From: an uncultured Brevinematales bacterium | Lineage (GTDB): Bacteria > Spirochaetota > Brevinematia > Brevinematales > CAZQBT01 | Length of the DNA: 64,000 nt | Reading direction: 5' to 3' | NCBI GenBank assembly: GCA_964591955.1 | Contig: CAZQBT010000001.1 | Location: 371 to 64,370 of the forward strand | Shown: positions 39,628 through 52,304 of the stretch, one piece after another | Numbering within the stretch: position 1 is the first letter of the stretch | Layout: every line of letters starts with the position of its first letter | Program-made: the position numbers and the translations under genes | The notes under the pieces: model-generated | Seen by the model: only the letters and a program-made list of their open reading frames with translations | Told to the model about the DNA's origin: nothing | Databases searched by the model: none

Positions 39628-40035
39628 TTACCCGTCTTTGTCAAGACGGCATATTTTCGCCTTGCTCAAAACCCGCTTTTCATACATCAACACTATCGCT
39701 ATAACTACAACGCCGACACCGATTGCTATTAAAAGAGCCGCCCATTCCTCAAGCCCCAATTTTCCCATCAATAAAAAGGTCGATATTATAAATATTAGAG
39801 GCGCAATAAACAACAGAAAAGAAAACCAAATAGTCCTGCCTTCGCCGATTTCGATTTTTACATTATCTCCGATTTGGAAATTCGATTTGGAAACAATTTC
39901 GATAAAACGCCCGTCTTTATCTACCTTGCAGACGTTGCTTAATTTACATTGCGAACAGTCAAGCGTCTCTTCACCGAGAATCTCAATGCGGATTACCTCG
40001 TCTTTCGCCTCACGGACTATGCCTTTTTTCTCCAT
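39628..40035 (-). CDS. RseC/MucC-family (SoxR-reducing system) membrane protein
   Basis: The N-terminal Cys pair is DCSQCKLSNVC, followed by GDNVKIEI and then two TM helices. The ATG at 40035 follows GGAGAG. Confidence 0.7.
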   Translation of the reverse strand: MEKKGIVREAKDEVIRIEILGEETLDCSQCKLSNVCKVDKDGRFIEIVSKSNFQIGDNVKIEIGEGRTIWFSFLLFIAPLIFIISTFLLMGKLGLEEWAALLIAIGVGVVVIAIVLMYEKRVLSKAKICRLDKDG

Positions 40036-40116
40036 AATTCTCTCCATATAACTGTTTGAACTTATTATAGACTCTTTTGATAATTTAAGAAAGTTTTCGG
40101 CGTATTGCTTTTAAAA

Positions 40117-40893
40117 TTATTCCCTGAAGCCCCGAATCATCCCGCCTATATCGGAGGATTGCATCAGGCTCGTTCCGACAAGAACTCCGTCAAACCCCGC
40201 CTTTTTGAGCAATTGAATATCCTGCGATGATTTTACTGCGGAGAGCGAAAGTCTTATCCTGTCATCAGGTATAAATTCTATATTTCCGATTGAATGATAT
40301 AAATCGACTTCAAACGTAAAAAGGTTGCGGTTATTAATCCCGATAATTTCCGCCCCCAAATCTACGGCACGACGGATATTTTCAGGGGAATGGGCTTCAA
40401 CTAACGCCTCCATTCCGGCTCGCTTTGTCGCCTCAAAAAGCGAAACAAGCTCGTTATCATCCAGAATATCCGTTATAAGAAGAATCGCGCTTGCATTGCA
40501 ACGGGAAGCCAATTCTATCTGCACTGGGTCGATAATAAACTCCTTGCACAACACGGGAATACTAACCTTATTCGCAATATCCCGCAGAATATCAAAACTA
40601 CCGCCGAAAAATTTATTATCGGTCAATACCGAAATAGCGGTAGCGCCGTTTTGTTCATAAACAGACGCAATCTGCAGGGGGGAATCTCCATAATTGATTT
40701 TACCCTCCGACGGCGAACTGCGCTTTATCTCCGCGATAACGCCGAATTTATGCGCCCTGATAGCCTCGCTCAAAAACGGTCTTTCGGTTTTACCGTCAAT
40801 ATCGCCGAAAAGCTCCATCCCGGCTTTCATCGCTTCAACCTCGATAATCTTATTATGTATAACCGGCGCAAGCTTTCCGAGATTGCTTCTCAT
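40117..40893 (-). CDS. trpC: Indole-3-glycerol-phosphate synthase
   Basis: 258 aa with IAEIKRSSPSEG and VLTDNKFFGGS motifs. There is an ATGA overlap with the trpGD stop. Confidence 0.9.
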   Translation of the reverse strand: MRSNLGKLAPVIHNKIIEVEAMKAGMELFGDIDGKTERPFLSEAIRAHKFGVIAEIKRSSPSEGKINYGDSPLQIASVYEQNGATAISVLTDNKFFGGSFDILRDIANKVSIPVLCKEFIIDPVQIELASRCNASAILLITDILDDNELVSLFEATKRAGMEALVEAHSPENIRRAVDLGAEIIGINNRNLFTFEVDLYHSIGNIEFIPDDRIRLSLSAVKSSQDIQLLKKAGFDGVLVGTSLMQSSDIGGMIRGFRE

Positions 40894-42485
40894 TGTAAAA
40901 CCCCGCCGACCCGTTTAAGCACATCAAACGCCGAACCGTCGTCTATTGAGGATGAGGCGCGCTCCATCGCCTCCCTGAGGTCAACCCCCAGTGCGCAGTA
41001 AATAACCAAAGCGGAGTTTAAAACAACGGCTTTGCGAGGGTCACCTTTCTCCTCGCCCGAAAGGACGGCACGGATAAGAGCCGCGCTTTCATCGGCATCG
41101 GAAACTCTAAGATTATCCAAGCTACCCGAAAGCCCGAATTCTCCCGCGTCAATCTCCAAACTGCGGACATCCCCGTCAATAATTTCGCGTGCAAAGGTTT
41201 TGCCCTCAATGGTCGCCTCATCAAGTCCGCCCTCACCGTGAACCACAAGCGAATGCCTGTGCCCAAGTCGCAGGAACACCCCTGCGATAAGGTCAAGAAG
41301 AGATTGCGAAAACACGCCCATAACGTGATATTTCACCCCTGCGGGATTAACGATGGGTCCCAGTATATTGAAAATAGTGCGAACGCCCATTTCACGACGG
41401 ACAGGCATAACGTTTTTCATAGCGGGATGGTAAAGAGGGGCGAACATAAAAGCAAAACGGTTTTCCGCAAGAGACCGTGCCGCCTCATCGGCGCTCAATT
41501 TAATATTGACTCCGAGTTTTTCAAGCACGTCCGCAGAACCGCTCTTGCTGGTTATTGAACGGTTGCCGTGTTTTGCGATATATACGCCTGCGCCTGCGGC
41601 TACAAAAGCGCTTGCCGTGGAAATATTAAAAGTCCCCGAATGGTCTCCGCCTGTTCCGCAGGTATCGGCGATAGGAGACAAGTCGCTTTCCACGCGGTTT
41701 GCCGATAAAAACATTGAGCAGGCGCTTCCCGCTATCTCCTCTGCCGTTTCACCCTTGAGTTTTAACGCCATAAGATAGGATGCTATCTGGGCGGGGGATG
41801 CGTAACCCCCCATAATCGCATCCATTACCTCCGATGCCTCATCTTTCGACAGATTTTCACCCTCGGAAATTTTAGAAATAAAACCTCTGACCTTTCCCGA
41901 AATCTTACCGGTCTTATTCTTTACAACTATATCTACAAAATTCCTGATAATTTTTTTCCCGTCTTCGGTAAGAAAGGATTCGGGGTGAAACTGGATACCA
42001 TAGGTATCGCGCCCCTTTACGCGAAGCCCCATAATCTCGCCGTCATCACTGCGCGCGGTAGTCTCAAGTTCGGATGGAAAACTCTCGCGCTCGGCAACCA
42101 GCGAATGATAACGGATACCGTTTAAAGGATTAACAACCCCCTCAAAAATCCCCTCCCCGTTATGGTGCATAGCGGAAGTTTTACCATGCATAATATTCTT
42201 TGCCTGAATAATTTTACCGCCGAAAGCCTGGGCGATAGACTGATGACCGAGACATACGCCGAAAAGAGGAATATCCCCCGCACGCTCTATAAGTTCAAGA
42301 GAAATACCCGCATCATCGGGACGGCCGGGGCCCGGCGAAATAACGATACCATCGGGTAACAAGGCAAGCGCCTCATCCACGGAAACGGCATCGTTGCGAA
42401 AGACCTTAATATCGGAGTAAAACTCCCCGATATACTGCACTATGTTATAAATAAAAGAATCGTAATTATCAATCACCAAAATCAT
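40890..42485 (-). CDS. trpGD: Fused anthranilate synthase component II / anthranilate phosphoribosyltransferase
   Basis: The N-terminal GATase1 domain has MILVIDNYDSF, GVCLGHQ and a HPES-type triad. The C-terminal TrpD domain has CGTGGDHSGTFNISTA and KHGNRS motifs. Confidence 0.9.
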   Translation of the reverse strand: MILVIDNYDSFIYNIVQYIGEFYSDIKVFRNDAVSVDEALALLPDGIVISPGPGRPDDAGISLELIERAGDIPLFGVCLGHQSIAQAFGGKIIQAKNIMHGKTSAMHHNGEGIFEGVVNPLNGIRYHSLVAERESFPSELETTARSDDGEIMGLRVKGRDTYGIQFHPESFLTEDGKKIIRNFVDIVVKNKTGKISGKVRGFISKISEGENLSKDEASEVMDAIMGGYASPAQIASYLMALKLKGETAEEIAGSACSMFLSANRVESDLSPIADTCGTGGDHSGTFNISTASAFVAAGAGVYIAKHGNRSITSKSGSADVLEKLGVNIKLSADEAARSLAENRFAFMFAPLYHPAMKNVMPVRREMGVRTIFNILGPIVNPAGVKYHVMGVFSQSLLDLIAGVFLRLGHRHSLVVHGEGGLDEATIEGKTFAREIIDGDVRSLEIDAGEFGLSGSLDNLRVSDADESAALIRAVLSGEEKGDPRKAVVLNSALVIYCALGVDLREAMERASSSIDDGSAFDVLKRVGGVLQ

Positions 42486-42494
42486 ACCGCCCTC

Positions 42495-43916
42495 CTAAAT
42501 TATAGCCCGTAAAAGGGCTTTGGCTTTATTAATAGTCTCCTGATACTCTTTTTCAGGAACAGAGTCATAAACAATCCCCGCGCCGGCTTGTATATAAGCC
42601 GTATCGCCCTTATGGACAATAGTCCTGATAGCGATACAGGTATCGGTGTTGCCTGAAAAGTCGATATATCCGACAGCGCCGGCGTAAACGCCCCGCTTTT
42701 CGGGTTCAAGCTCCTCGATAATTTCCATAGCGCGAACCTTCGGCGACCCCGTTACCGTCCCTGCGGGAAAAGTCGCGCCGATAATATCTACCGCATCAAA
42801 TTTACCGTCGGGCTTGCCCAAAACATCGGATACTATATGCATAACATGGGAATATCGCTCAATATGGTAAGGGGCTTCAACCCTGATACTGCCGAACTCG
42901 CTAATCCTTCCGACATCATTACGCGCAAGGTCAAGCAGCATAGTATGCTCGGCAAGCTCCTTTTTGTCGGAAAGAAGGTCCTGTTCAATAGCCAAATCTT
43001 CCTCCCAGTTTTTCCCTCTCGGACGGGTTCCGGCTATCGGACGGACTATTACCTCGTCCTTATAACAATCGCGGGTGCGTTTTACCATAACCTCCGGTGA
43101 TGAACCCACTAAGGCAAATTCGGTAAAGTCGATATAAAACATATAGGGCGAGGGGTTAATCATACGAAGTTTTCGGTATATATCAAAAGGGGAGAGCGGG
43201 GTTTGAACCCTGAGACGCTGCGATAAAACCACCTGAAAAATATCCCCCGACACGATATATTCCTTAGCCTTTTCCACCGCATAGATAAAGTTTTCTTTTT
43301 TGAAATTTGAAATCAGGTTGATTTTACTGTTTTGCGACTCGACAATACGGGAAGGCGGTTTTGCGTTTAAAAGACGTGTCTCGTATTCATCAATAAGTTT
43401 ACGCGCTTCCGATTTGTCGGTTTCACTGTAAGCATAGCTTATCAAAACAAGTTTCTGCTTGATATGGTCGAAAGCGATAAGAATTTTAGGCAATACCAAA
43501 TAAATATCGGGAAGCTCAAGGCGGTCGGGTTTGGTATCGGGGATTTTCTCAAAATATCTGACCGAATCGTATGAGAAATATCCGAGAAGCCCTGCGCTGA
43601 AAGGAGGCAATCCTTCCACCTCGCTTTCCTTAAAACGCGACACCAAGCGTTTAACCTCATTAATCGGGTTATCGCAAGTCTTCTCTTCCTTGTCGCCTCT
43701 AAAATCAATAGATACGCGTTTCCCTTTAGCCTTAAACTCAAGCTCGGGGTCAAAACCGAGGAAGGAATATCGCCCCATTCGTTCCCCCATCTCGACACTT
43801 TCCAATAGAAACCCGATTTTGCCCTGTTCTTTGAGAGCAAGAAAAGCCGAAACCGGGGTTTCGATATCCGCCGCAATTTCCTTAAAAACCGGATATAATC
43901 GCACTTCCTTTTCCAT
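42495..43916 (-). CDS. trpE: Anthranilate synthase component I
   Basis: 473 aa with LLESVEMGERMGRYSF and chorismate-binding domain motifs (GAGIVYDS). Confidence 0.95.
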   Translation of the reverse strand: MEKEVRLYPVFKEIAADIETPVSAFLALKEQGKIGFLLESVEMGERMGRYSFLGFDPELEFKAKGKRVSIDFRGDKEEKTCDNPINEVKRLVSRFKESEVEGLPPFSAGLLGYFSYDSVRYFEKIPDTKPDRLELPDIYLVLPKILIAFDHIKQKLVLISYAYSETDKSEARKLIDEYETRLLNAKPPSRIVESQNSKINLISNFKKENFIYAVEKAKEYIVSGDIFQVVLSQRLRVQTPLSPFDIYRKLRMINPSPYMFYIDFTEFALVGSSPEVMVKRTRDCYKDEVIVRPIAGTRPRGKNWEEDLAIEQDLLSDKKELAEHTMLLDLARNDVGRISEFGSIRVEAPYHIERYSHVMHIVSDVLGKPDGKFDAVDIIGATFPAGTVTGSPKVRAMEIIEELEPEKRGVYAGAVGYIDFSGNTDTCIAIRTIVHKGDTAYIQAGAGIVYDSVPEKEYQETINKAKALLRAII

Positions 43917-43940
43917 AGTAAATCCCCTTGTTTTAATTTA

Positions 43941-43980
43941 TAAAACAAAAAAACCCCGCAGGGACTTTGTCCTGCGGGGG
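43941..43980 (-). terminator. Attenuator terminator of the trp leader
   Basis: The minus strand reads CCCCGCAGGAC-AAAG-TCCCTGCGGGG followed by TTTTTTTGTTTT, ending 24 nt before the trpE ATG. Confidence 0.8.
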
Positions 43981-44024
43981 TCTATTTCAAAAAATACATT
44001 TCACAAATAGACAGGCTTTCATCC

Positions 44025-44084
44025 CTAATCAACAAGAAGTAAGCGCCACCACCAAGAAAACAAGGATACAAAAGACCGTCTCAT
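44025..44084 (-). CDS. trpL: trp operon leader peptide (19 aa, three consecutive Trp codons)
   Basis: GGGAGA lies 7 nt before the ATG. The ORF ATG AGA CGG TCT TTT GTA TCC TTG TTT TCT TGG TGG TGG CGC TTA CTT CTT GTT GAT TAG encodes MRRSFVSLFSWWWRLLLVD*. It sits between a promoter and a terminator upstream of trpE and is too short for the ORF track. Confidence 0.75.
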   Translation of the reverse strand: MRRSFVSLFSWWWRLLLVD

Positions 44085-44111
44085 AAAAATTTCTCCCGTA
44101 TATTTGAACAT

Positions 44112-44140
44112 ATTTTATCAACCGTTTTTTATTTTGTCAA
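44112..44140 (-). promoter_or_regulatory. Sigma70-type promoter of the trp operon
   Basis: The minus strand reads TTGACA (44140-44135), a 17-nt spacer, then TAAAAT (44117-44112). Confidence 0.65.
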
Positions 44141-44177
44141 TTTTTTTATTAAGATTTTTCAGGGCATTTGTAAAAAC

Positions 44178-44531
44178 CTAAGCCCTGCAAAAAGCAATAG
44201 CATCCGACTCGGTTTCCTTGATTGTAAAAAGAGCCTTAAGACCGGTAAGCTGAATAATATGTTCGACTTCCTGTGAGGGTTTTAAAAAACAAGCCCTGCC
44301 TTTACCCTCAACCTTCTTAAAAATACTAACTAAAGTCCCGATACCCTGACTGTTAATATAACCAAGCTCCGATAAATCAAAGATAAATCTTAACGCACCT
44401 TTATCAAGCAAATCATTCAAAAAAACGCCGAACTTCATATTAGTCTCGGCATCAAGAACACCCGAAACTTTAACAATCCAAACGCCGTTTTTTTCTTCCG
44501 CGTGAATATCAAAACTATCTTTTACCTGCAT
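44178..44531 (-). CDS. STAS-domain anti-sigma-factor antagonist (RsbV/SpoIIAA-like)
   Basis: 117 aa with a conserved phosphorylatable Ser context (DLSELGYINSQGIGTLV). Confidence 0.85.
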   Translation of the reverse strand: MQVKDSFDIHAEEKNGVWIVKVSGVLDAETNMKFGVFLNDLLDKGALRFIFDLSELGYINSQGIGTLVSIFKKVEGKGRACFLKPSQEVEHIIQLTGLKALFTIKETESDAIAFCRA

Positions 44532-49874: not shown

Positions 49875-51047
49875 TTATTTTCCTTTTACTATTTTATAAA
49901 CCGTATCGGCATCCTTATCGCCCCGACCCGAAACGTTGATAATAACAATATCGTCTTTTTTAAAACGGTCGGGGTTATTTATTACATAGGCAACGGCGTG
50001 GCTTGACTCAAGCGCCGGAATAATCCCCTCCATTCTCGAAAGATACCCGAATGCTTCAAGCGCCTCATCATCCGTAGCCTTGACCGGAGTAAGCCTGCCC
50101 TTGGAATTAAGATAAGCAAGCTCAGGTCCAACACCGGGATAATCAAGCCCTGCCGAAATGGAATGAACAGGCATAACCTGCCCGTAATCATCAAGTATAA
50201 CCTTGCTTTTAGAACCGTGCAAAACCCCCGTCCTGCCGAAAGCAAGCGAGGCGGAATTGTCGCCCGGATTATCACTGCGGCCGCCCGCTTCAACTCCAAG
50301 AAGTTTCACGTCTTTATCTTCCAAAAACGGGTAGAACAACCCCATAGCATTGGAGCCACCGCCCACACATGCGACAAGATAATCAGGCAGGCGGTTTTCC
50401 GCTTCGATAATCTGCTTACGGGCTTCATATCCGACTACCGATTGAAAATCGCGAACTATGACGGGGTATGGGAAAGGTCCTGCAACCGAACCTATAAGGT
50501 AATATGTCGTTTCGACATTGGAAAGCCAATCCCTGAACGCTTCGTTCATAGCATCCTTCAAAGTCCTGCTCCCCGTATCGACCGAAACGACTTTAGCGCC
50601 CAAAAGTTCCATACGAAATACGTTTAAAGCCTGACGATATGTATCCTCTTCGCCCATATAGACACAACACTCCATATTCATAAGAGCGCAAGCGGTAGCG
50701 GTTGCGACCCCGTGTTGTCCCGCGCCGGTTTCCGCTATAATACGTTGCTTTCCCATCCGTTTTGCAAGCAAAATCTGTCCGATTGTGTTGTTGATTTTAT
50801 GCGCGCCGGTATGATTCAAATCCTCACGCTTAAGATATACCTTAAAGCCAAGGTCTTTACTCATATTTTGCGCGAAATATAAGGGGGAAGGTCTCCCGAC
50901 ATAGTTCTTAAAATAATAATTAAGCTCATCGAGAAAACCCTTGTCGTTTTTGTATTTTTCGTAAGCATTTTCAAGTTCTTCAAGTATAGGGACAAAACTT
51001 TCGGGGATATACGCCCCGCCGAATTCTCCGAAATTATCTTTTTTCAT
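49875..51047 (-). CDS. trpB: Tryptophan synthase beta chain
   Basis: [22 protein letters not shown] (PLP lysine) and GGGSNAMG motifs are present. The likely ATG at 51047 ([11 protein letters not shown]) overlaps the upstream gene by 14 nt. Confidence 0.9.
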
Positions 51048-52002
51048 TGATATCCCAACCGACATAAATTTTATCCATAATTTCTTTGGCAATTTTAAGT
51101 GCGGAAATATCCGCTTCGGGATGGCGTAAGGGTTCGCGCTCCTCACCGATACACTCGATAAAATGAATCAACTCAAGTTTAAGCGCATTATCCTTATGAA
51201 CAAAAACCCTTTCGACAAAGGCTTCCTGTTTGTATTTAATCTCCTCGCGCATAACCACGTATTCGGTTTGAGGCTGACGGATTATAGTAATATCCTGTGT
51301 AGCATAATCAAGATTGATAAACGAATCCTCCTGGGAAATGGTAAGCGTTCTGATTTTGTTGGCGGAAACCCTGCTTGCGGCAATATTGGCGACAACCCCG
51401 TTATCAAAATAGATAGAGGCGTTTGCCAAATCCTCAAACTCGGAATAAACCCGCGTGCCGTGCGCCTGAATATCGACAGGATGACCGCCGGCAATCGCAA
51501 GTATTATATCAATATCGTGAATCATCAAATCAAGAACAACACCGACATCTACAATTCTCCCGCGGGGTCCCATACGTTGCGCCTGAATAAAATACGGGTC
51601 TTTGACTATATGCTGAAGTTCCTGAACCGCCGCGTTAAATCTTTCAACATGCCCGACCTGTAAAAAAACATTGTTTTCCTCGGCAAGCTCTATGAGCTTT
51701 TCTGCATAATATATTGTGCGCGTGATAGGTTTTTCAACCAGAACATGCTTTTTAGCGGCAAGAGCTTGAGAAGCATATTTATAATGTAAATATGTAGGAA
51801 CGGCAACCACAACCGCATCAACTTCTTTCAGGAACTTGGAATAATCCGTAAAACCCTTGATACCGTATAACTCCGATACGCGTTTAACCTCGGAATCGTC
51901 TATATCGCAAACCGCGGTCAACTCAATACCTTGAATGGATGATAAGACATTGACATGGTATCTTCCCATGTGCCCAATTCCAGCAACGCCGATTTTAACC
52001 AA
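51034..52002 (-). CDS. Gfo/Idh/MocA-family NAD(P)-dependent oxidoreductase
   Basis: N-terminal Rossmann motif [17 protein letters not shown] start 6 nt after AAGGAG. Confidence 0.85.
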
Positions 52003-52022
52003 AATATACTCCTTAAAAAGAC

Positions 52023-52304
52023 TTAGTTCAAAAGAAGATTTTTGTAATCCTCATTTTGAGAGATAAAATTTTTGGCATACGGACAGGTTGCGATTATCTT
52101 GAAGCCGTTTTCTTTAGCATAATCGCAGGCGAATTTAAGAATTTTCGCCGCGATACCCTGTCCTCTGAACACAGACGGGACAAAAGTATGAAAAAAATCA
52201 AGCACCCCGTCCCCTTTATCCTCGTATTCCAAATGCGCTTCCTGCCCCTTGATAGCGATATAAAATTTATGCTTTTTTGTATCGTGTATTATATCAAAAT
52301 CCAA
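52023..52304 (-). CDS. Small GNAT-type N-acetyltransferase (YjdJ-like)
   Basis: 93 aa with FRGQGIAAKILKFACDYAKENGFKIIATCPY. TTG start after GGAGGTGG. Confidence 0.7.
   Translation of the reverse strand: MDFDIIHDTKKHKFYIAIKGQEAHLEYEDKGDGVLDFFHTFVPSVFRGQGIAAKILKFACDYAKENGFKIIATCPYAKNFISQNEDYKNLLLN

Follow-up and report, generated by a model that had tools for sequence, protein, structure and literature searches.

A probable tryptophan-sensing leader-peptide attenuator upstream of trpE in the spirochaete order Brevinematales

We analysed a 64,000-nucleotide stretch of DNA from an uncultured Brevinematales bacterium (contig CAZQBT010000001.1, positions 371 to 64,370; hereafter the window) and found that its trpE-trpGD-trpC operon is probably preceded by a classical ribosome-mediated leader-peptide transcription attenuator that senses tryptophan (Trp). 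The parts of this element, their conservation among relatives, and the co-variation of its upstream strand with its terminator were established by sequence and comparison. A first-pass annotation of the same letters had described the region as an unannotated attenuator, and this was borne out: public metagenome assemblies carry the TrpE locus of the window, and the gene callers used there place no gene in the gap between the upstream STAS gene and trpE. The contig is present in metagenome samples such as ERZ27252280 and SRR10872671. The following features make up the element in the window.

44112-44140, minus strand: sigma-70-type promoter, TTGACA (44140-44135), 17-nucleotide spacer and TG-extended TAAAAT (44117-44112)
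44092-44097, minus strand: leader Shine-Dalgarno sequence GGGAGA, 7 nucleotides before the ATG
44025-44084, minus strand: leader open reading frame (ORF), trpL-like, 19 codons plus TAG, MRRSFVSLFSWWWRLLLVD; ATG at 44084, stop TAG at 44027-44025
44061-44080, minus strand: segment 1 (protector strand), leader codons 2-8, GACGGUCUUUUGUAUCCUUG, from minimum-free-energy folds
44046-44054, minus strand: tandem Trp codons UGG UGG UGG (TGGTGGTGG), codons 11-13, proposed stall site
44010-44028, minus strand: segment 2 (antiterminator strand), UUAGGGAUGAAAGCCUGUC, containing the leader stop codon, from constrained folds
43980-44012, minus strand: AU-rich hairpin P2, an 8-bp helix GTCTATTT/AAATAGAC as DNA, GUCUAUUU...AAAUAGAC, arms 44012-44005 and 43987-43980, -7.2 kcal/mol
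43947-43979, minus strand: intrinsic terminator CCCCGCAGGAC-AAAG-UCCCUGCGGGG (43979-43954) plus U7 (43953-43947), hairpin -19.8 kcal/mol alone

The promoter, the Shine-Dalgarno sequence and the 19-codon leader with its three consecutive TGG codons were all found where the first-pass annotation had placed them. The promoter has 11 of 12 consensus matches and the joint best score in the 2.5 kb scanned, with a predicted transcription start at about 44105, and the leader ORF sits between it and trpE, 108 nucleotides before the trpE ATG. The terminator, between the leader ORF and trpE, was also recovered by a terminator caller; its U7 tract had been said to end 24 nucleotides before trpE, while we counted 30 nucleotides to the trpE ATG, or 25 when the following GTTTT is included. 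Finally, leader codons 2-5 are complementary to GAAAGCCTGTC, as claimed, with 8 Watson-Crick pairs, one G-U pair and one mismatch rather than 9 of 10 matches.

We examined the DNA around 12 TrpE orthologues of the Brevinematales clade, which together with the window gave 13 loci. The layout of the window was present in 9 of the 12 orthologue loci, whose TrpE proteins are 63-77% identical to that of the window; a leader ORF and a following terminator were thus found in 10 of the 13 loci. All 10 have a purine-rich, Shine-Dalgarno-like stretch before the leader ATG, and 9 have a TTGAC(A/T) -35 hexamer 47-57 nucleotides before it, the pattern search giving no match in the remaining locus (L173). 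The ORFs of the relatives have 15-31 codons and are followed by an intrinsic terminator with the core CCGCAGG/CCUGCGG, and in all 10 loci WW or WWW stands at codons 11-16. These are the only conserved residues of the leader peptides, which in the relatives read as follows.

L011: MKDSNTLLINWWRQIYS
L164: MNRSYSLSKLNWWRGILIYTLG
L166: MIILTVSSNINWWRSISLSSIG
L167: MKTNYWQTQQNWWTS
L168: MKSVCVSKFYFYFWWWFRSLSMFGVKPCNRV
L169: MKLFSVISLFWWWRSFCQFKVKRLVG
L171: MSSLQISKLFFFWWWFKIMSSEV
L172: MKLPFFFANNWWWRVKLSFSGDKY
L173: MSLKIVNSFYFFWWWFFFQLSNTGIILVKKK

A conserved Trp run in an otherwise divergent peptide would be the signature of a translated sensor and not of a functional peptide. The comparison of orthologous trpE upstream regions that the first-pass annotation had proposed therefore came out in favour of its reading, with the Trp run conserved in 10 of the 13 clade loci. 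The element stays with trpE despite differing upstream neighbours, some of them on the opposite strand. For background, we took 150 unrelated trpE loci, mostly homologues from other phyla at about 50% identity, from TrpE scans of genome and metagenome contigs; a WW-containing ORF plus terminator within 450 nucleotides was present in one of them. In the window itself, TGGTGGTGG occurs once in the 64 kb against 0.21 expected, and at least one copy was present in 20 of 100 shuffles, so that the run is not significant alone.

The terminator stem is conserved across the loci: its core CCGCAGG/CCUGCGG is nearly invariant in the alignment of the 10 sequences, 95.9% of the cells of the stem are paired, and three pairs show compensatory changes, values far above those obtained with slid partners. 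We considered whether CCGCAGG...CCTGCGG might be a generic repeated terminator and rejected this, given its single copy in the window. Separately, CCGCAGG by itself is more frequent in the window than expected: this heptamer stands at 18 sites (e.g. 41338, 41593 and 42760) against an expectation of 4.7, and no shuffle reached 18.

We then looked for a fold that excludes the terminator, barring the terminator 5' arm from downstream pairing and masking the RNA to 13 nucleotides past the A-site of a ribosome on the last Trp codon. E. coli trpL, whose sequence was confirmed against 5,422 genomes, served as a positive control in the same pipeline. The best non-terminator fold of the window was one long hairpin made of two helices with the remainder of P2 at its tip. 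The first helix, H1, pairs UAGGGAU (44027-44021), which contains the leader stop codon, with GUCCCUG (43965-43959), a stretch that runs from the last part of the terminator loop into the 3' arm; the second, H2, pairs CCUGU (44015-44011) with GCAGG (43975-43971) of the terminator 5' arm. The suggestion of the first-pass annotation that CCTG could pair with CAGG of the 5' arm is therefore recovered as H2, which is antiterminating only together with H1. Its 8-bp helix is present and adjoins the terminator, but it does not overlap the terminator and is not by itself an antiterminator: P2 and the terminator coexist in every minimum-free-energy fold, and P2 was rejected in that role. Two further candidates were discarded, a pairing of the Trp codon run with the C-rich 5' arm (rejected by inspection for its U-C mismatches) and the duplex UGUCU-AUU-UGUG:CGCAGGACA (-8.5 kcal/mol), which must break the more stable P2.

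The alternative fold (-19.8 kcal/mol) and the terminating fold (-30.6 kcal/mol) of the window are mutually exclusive. With a ribosome at the stop codon, the gap between the two was 15.2 kcal/mol in the window, 12.6 in E. coli trpL and 5.4-26.1 in the nine relatives. The gap was smaller with the ribosome at the Trp codons than at the stop codon in 9 of the 10 loci and in the E. coli control; the shift in the window thus has the same sign as in the control. Segment 2 would be masked by a terminating ribosome because it lies within about 13 nucleotides of the stop codon. In 9 of the 10 loci the leader stop codon lies inside the antiterminator strand or next to it. In the free-state ensemble, segment 2 of the window was paired to leader codons 2-8 with probability 0.88 (0.81 in E. 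coli), and about half of this protector pairing uses nucleotides that a stalled ribosome would cover.

The same nested architecture was the best non-terminator fold in most relatives, with varying geometry. Inner hairpins of unrelated sequence occupy the place of P2 in L167, L168, L171 and L172. We also found an RNA motif, UUGUC-N6-AGGUG, conserved after the Trp run in L169, L171 and L172, in different reading frames and complementary to the loop/3'-arm junction of its own locus (AGGUGU:ACACCU, CAGGUG:CACCUG and CACAGGUAUU:AAUACCUGUG; the corresponding pairing in the window is AGGGAU:GUCCCU).

The strongest evidence that the upstream strand and the terminator belong together came from a chimera swap, in which each upstream region was joined to the terminator module of each of the 10 loci and the energy of the non-terminator fold was computed. 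Cognate combinations averaged -11.0 kcal/mol and non-cognate combinations -8.6 kcal/mol (permutation p = 0.0036; p = 0.00014 among derangements), and the own module of the window ranked second of 10. When the model ribosome stood at the stop codon, the average stabilisation dropped to -2.8 kcal/mol and the cognate preference disappeared (p = 0.19). By this test the antiterminator fold appears to co-evolve with the terminator, and the signal is lost under ribosome masking at the stop codon. In the same 13-nucleotide mask, a model without kinetics, the stabilisation thus moved from a mean of -11.0 with a stalled ribosome to -2.8 kcal/mol at the stop codon; the window moved only from -12.1 to -7.2 kcal/mol, and L167 was unchanged.

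Several results weigh against this interpretation. With the ribosome stalled at the Trp codons, the gap between alternative and terminator was 10.6 kcal/mol in the window, 4.7 in E. coli trpL and 3.6-13.7 in the nine relatives, and the alternative fold of the window is weak compared with its terminator. The alternative-structure folding proposed in the first-pass annotation hence yielded a mutually exclusive fold, but not one of an energy as close to the terminator as in E. coli, and the antiterminator of the window is predicted to be comparatively weak next to that of E. coli. Before the 3' arm is made, H2 gains about 1-2 kcal/mol over P2 (-9.0 against -7.2; -8.2 in the truncated fold with the ribosome at the stop codon). 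In L167 and L011 the stalled and stop-codon states differ little or not at all under the 13-nucleotide mask, and protector pairing is uneven in the relatives (0.04-0.73). When the spacer was shuffled, the 5'-arm pairing of the window (0.48) did not stand out from the shuffle mean (0.49); this metric has little power because it barely separates the E. coli control, which 37 of 200 shuffles reached. Simple duplex swaps were marginal (p = 0.07 for the 5' arm; p = 0.034 for loop plus 3' arm). Finally, RNAalifold on a MAFFT alignment of the 10 loci recovered the terminator only, because the spacers do not align.

A Trp-sensing leader in which ribosomes stall might act through something other than the nested hairpin: GGG (44024-44022) pairing with the CCC at the base of the 5' arm, or a decisive role of the protector hairpin, of polymerase pausing or of ribosome release. 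In the truncated stalled state the minimum-free-energy fold prefers GGG:CCC plus UGUU:GACA (-12.8 kcal/mol) over CCUGU:GCAGG (-9.0 kcal/mol), several alternative pairings have similar energy, and the geometry differs among relatives. We nevertheless consider such a switch unlikely, since among folds without the terminator the nested hairpin, which takes up both arms, scores best in the window and in most of the relatives, and it is the one evaluated by the significant chimera swap. The specific H1/H2 geometry, in turn, is a plausible but tentative assignment, somewhat short of probable.

A second alternative is that the terminator is controlled in trans, by a TRAP-like protein, uncharged tRNA (T-box), a small RNA or a metabolite, with the WWW-containing ORF incidental or secondary. 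TRAP or T-box control is used by the trp operons of other low-GC bacteria, and the sequence-conserved terminator core could be a binding site. We searched the whole 64-kb window with Rfam at gathering scores, and no family, T-box included, reached its threshold. A permissive search gave nothing but sub-threshold matches driven by the terminator. The trpB motif, a riboswitch candidate (RF04312; 25.8 bits, E = 0.28, against a gathering score of 59), was a weak match whose alignment is mainly terminator; that to Trp_leader (RF00513; 16.9 bits, E = 1.4, against 41) was terminator-driven as well. Bacteroid-trp (RF01692) and T-box were absent among the matches with E <= 10 in 43700-44400, and neither reached its gathering score. 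A TRAP-type leader was defined by nine to eleven (G/U)AG triplets at 2-3 nucleotide spacing; no run of even three such triplets was present in any of the 10 loci. Besides the terminator, only the Shine-Dalgarno sequence with its ATG and, at a constant distance in codons, the in-frame UGG UGG are invariant, as a translated sensor predicts, and we therefore regard control by a trans-acting factor as very unlikely. Finally, the arrangement might be due to chance: the hairpin could simply terminate the upstream anti-sigma-antagonist operon or be a structure that forms in the leader constitutively, and the small ORF could be noise. This view can draw on the frequency of TGGTGGTGG in shuffles and on the small ORFs that AT-rich spacers commonly hold, but it is highly improbable and is effectively refuted by comparison among the loci. 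The hairpin is separated from the upstream gene by a strong promoter, all 10 loci keep the layout although their upstream neighbours differ, the layout precedes the gene inserted before trpE in L164, L166 and L168, and the background is 1 in 150.

The core reading of the first-pass annotation, Trp-sensing leader-peptide attenuation of the E. coli trpL type, finds support in the WW/WWW conservation, the exclusive fold and the chimera swap. On its logic, a ribosome at WWW would leave the antiterminator free, whereas one at the stop codon would cover it. We infer that the leader would be translated and that ribosomes would stall in it, together with the exact antiterminator pairs and the regulatory outcome. 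Transcription would start about 7 nucleotides past TAAAAT, and the 19-codon leader would be translated while RNA polymerase proceeds. When Trp is plentiful, the ribosome would reach the UAG and cover the strand UAGGGAUGAAAGCC, which after release would re-pair with leader codons 2-8; once the hairpin and U7 of the terminator had formed, the transcript would end after about 157 nucleotides. When Trp is scarce, the ribosome would stall at UGG-UGG-UGG (codons 11-13), covering part of the protector strand and leaving the stop-codon region free. The free strand and the terminator region would form the long hairpin (CCUGU:GCAGG with the 5' arm, UAGGGAU:GUCCCUG with the 3' arm, P2 at the tip), which would preclude the terminator and let the polymerase continue into trpE. 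Transcription of the operon would thus be set by the supply of charged tRNA-Trp.

In functional terms the element is, judging from its sequence, attenuation of the E. coli trpL type, and it lies outside RF00513 and every other catalogued family. Both have a promoter-proximal short ORF with tandem UGG at about codons 10-13 directly upstream of trpE, the part order protector, antiterminator and terminator, a stop codon adjoining the antiterminator strand, and a shift in the same direction under ribosome-mask folding. The E. coli peptide carries GWWRTS, where we found SWWWR or NWWR, and the Trp run is often followed by CGC (Arg) in both. The two differ in that there is no sequence or structure homology between them and the host is a spirochaete and not a gammaproteobacterium; moreover, the Trp codons here lie in the loop of the protector hairpin and not in its stem, the proposed antiterminator pairs with sections of the two terminator arms and has an additional AU-rich hairpin inside it, and the energy gap is wider (10.6 against 4.7 kcal/mol).

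Other known systems share parts of this behaviour. TRAP in Bacillus and the T-box likewise make a Trp-dependent choice between terminator and antiterminator in a trp leader; those systems sense through a protein or uncharged tRNA, whereas the window has neither (G/U)AG repeats nor a T-box match. Leader-peptide attenuators have reportedly been described by Vitreschak et al. in 2004 in Thermotogales, low-GC Gram-positive bacteria and Bacteroidetes/Chlorobi. The Bacteroid-trp RNA is found ahead of genes for Trp synthesis and is regarded as a probable leader-peptide attenuator for Trp. It is listed for Bacteroidetes as cis-regulatory and not as a riboswitch (RF01692; PMC2864571), so that the statement of the first-pass annotation that leader-peptide attenuation is best documented in Proteobacteria and Actinobacteria needs correction: it is not confined there. 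The element of the window would be, like Bacteroid-trp, a cis-regulatory RNA outside these two groups; the two differ in phylum and show no sign of common descent. The trpB motif (RF04312) is a riboswitch candidate of Firmicutes and Fusobacteria for which the authors could not exclude a classic attenuator (PMC11109978). Like our element, it has a pair of hairpins of which the latter is an intrinsic terminator, and it is sometimes found ahead of trp genes; it differs in that our element has a leader ORF and the passages on the motif describe none (PMC11109978). In Sinorhizobium meliloti, the trpL attenuator stands upstream of trpE(G) only, the other trp genes lie elsewhere, and the released RNA, rnTrpL, acts in trans on another trp operon (PMC6614838); in the window, too, trpB is in a separate operon. 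We found nothing specific in the literature on Trp attenuation in Brevinema, Brevinematales or spirochaetes.

The operon behind the attenuator comprises the following features.

43923-43929, minus strand: trpE Shine-Dalgarno sequence AAGGGGA
42495-43916, minus strand: trpE, anthranilate synthase component I, 473 amino acids, ATG at 43916 (TIGR00564, 580 bits, above cut-off)
40890-42485, minus strand: trpG-trpD fusion, 531 amino acids (TIGR01245 and TIGR00566, each above cut-off)
40117-40893, minus strand: trpC, indole-3-glycerol-phosphate synthase, 258 amino acids, the final trp gene of the operon (TrpC models at about 247 bits, slightly under their cut-offs)

The top-scoring model for the trpG-trpD fusion was the bifunctional NF011201 (637 bits, under its cut-off of 670). 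The nearest relatives of the window TrpE, at 59-77% identity, are proteins of Brevinematales, 'Spirochaetes bacterium GWF1_51_8' and Thermospira aquatica, a genus placed in the order Brevinematales of the Spirochaetota, and on this basis the window was assigned to Brevinematales; the remaining matches, at about 50% identity or less, belong to other phyla. On the 5' side of the attenuator are two genes, one for an RsbW-like kinase and one for a STAS anti-sigma antagonist. On the other side, an RseC/MucC-family ORF of 139 amino acids (39628-40047, minus strand) lies between trpC and fliP-fliQ-fliR-flhB-flhA; it alone separates trpC from the flagellar export genes, so that the trp operon abuts a same-strand flagellar operon. 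The trpB gene of the window (49875-52304 region, minus strand; motifs HTGAHKIN and GGGSNA, PALP domain) is found about 6 kb upstream in a separate gene cluster. Genes for a small GNAT protein and a GFO/IDH/MocA oxidoreductase precede it, a sodium:solute symporter gene comes after it, and no W-rich leader was found at this gene.

The trp gene order of the Brevinematales clade is fluid, while the leader is retained. A non-trp gene stands between the leader/terminator and trpE in three loci: a metallophosphatase in L164 (676-1479) and L166 (691-1491), and a GNAT acetyltransferase in L168 (1529-2008). These inserted genes sit behind the leader and terminator and would therefore be under Trp attenuation. 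Unrelated genes after trpE also break the trp operons in L168 (3498-4982), L169 (3450-4874) and L171 (3432-5169), and include a DDE transposase, methyltransferases, a chorismate mutase (CM_2) and proteins of unknown function. Among the unrelated loci, the sole background match (L014) comes from a deltaproteobacterial metagenome-assembled genome, where the ORF MNCRLLYLATGWWQATAVSEDSATVLS and then a terminator-like hairpin lie within 450 nucleotides upstream of trpE; this is probably an independent Trp attenuator. Three Bacillota loci (L008, L010 and L093; Caldicoprobacter and others) have a conserved 36-codon ORF with WW, MNGKSRRHGQVTESRGWWDPV..., more than 450 nucleotides upstream of trpE, with no terminator detected.

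We did not find the Trp leader in the three Thermospira-type relatives (L170, L174 and L175; TrpE 59-62% identical; operon trpE-rtcB-trpGD). At these loci, a perfect 18-bp palindrome, GTTTCTATA(T/C)ATAGAAAC, stands downstream of a TTGACG-17-TATAAT promoter, immediately ahead of the Shine-Dalgarno sequence of trpE (L170, 1950-2000; L174, 1950-2000; L175, 1470-1530), with GTTTCTATATATAGAAAC as the candidate operator sequence. It looks like a repressor operator that took the place of the attenuator.

It is possible, if on the doubtful side, that these loci represent a distinct, uncatalogued attenuator family of the Brevinematales, in which the stop codon lies within an antiterminator strand that captures both terminator arms around an inner hairpin, which also drives the inserted metallophosphatase and acetyltransferase genes, and which was replaced by the 18-bp palindromic operator in the Thermospira branch. 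Within the same proposal, the RNA of about 157 nucleotides might act in trans like rnTrpL of Sinorhizobium, given that the operon of trpB is a separate one and has no leader.

The locus leaves the general understanding of attenuation unchanged. It adds a conserved small ORF that gene callers overlooked, and the 10 loci provide a ready seed alignment for a new RNA family. Within one order, they would point to a turnover of regulation, most lineages carrying a leader-peptide attenuator and the Thermospira branch a putative repressor operator, and they would extend textbook Trp attenuation to an order of spirochaetes.

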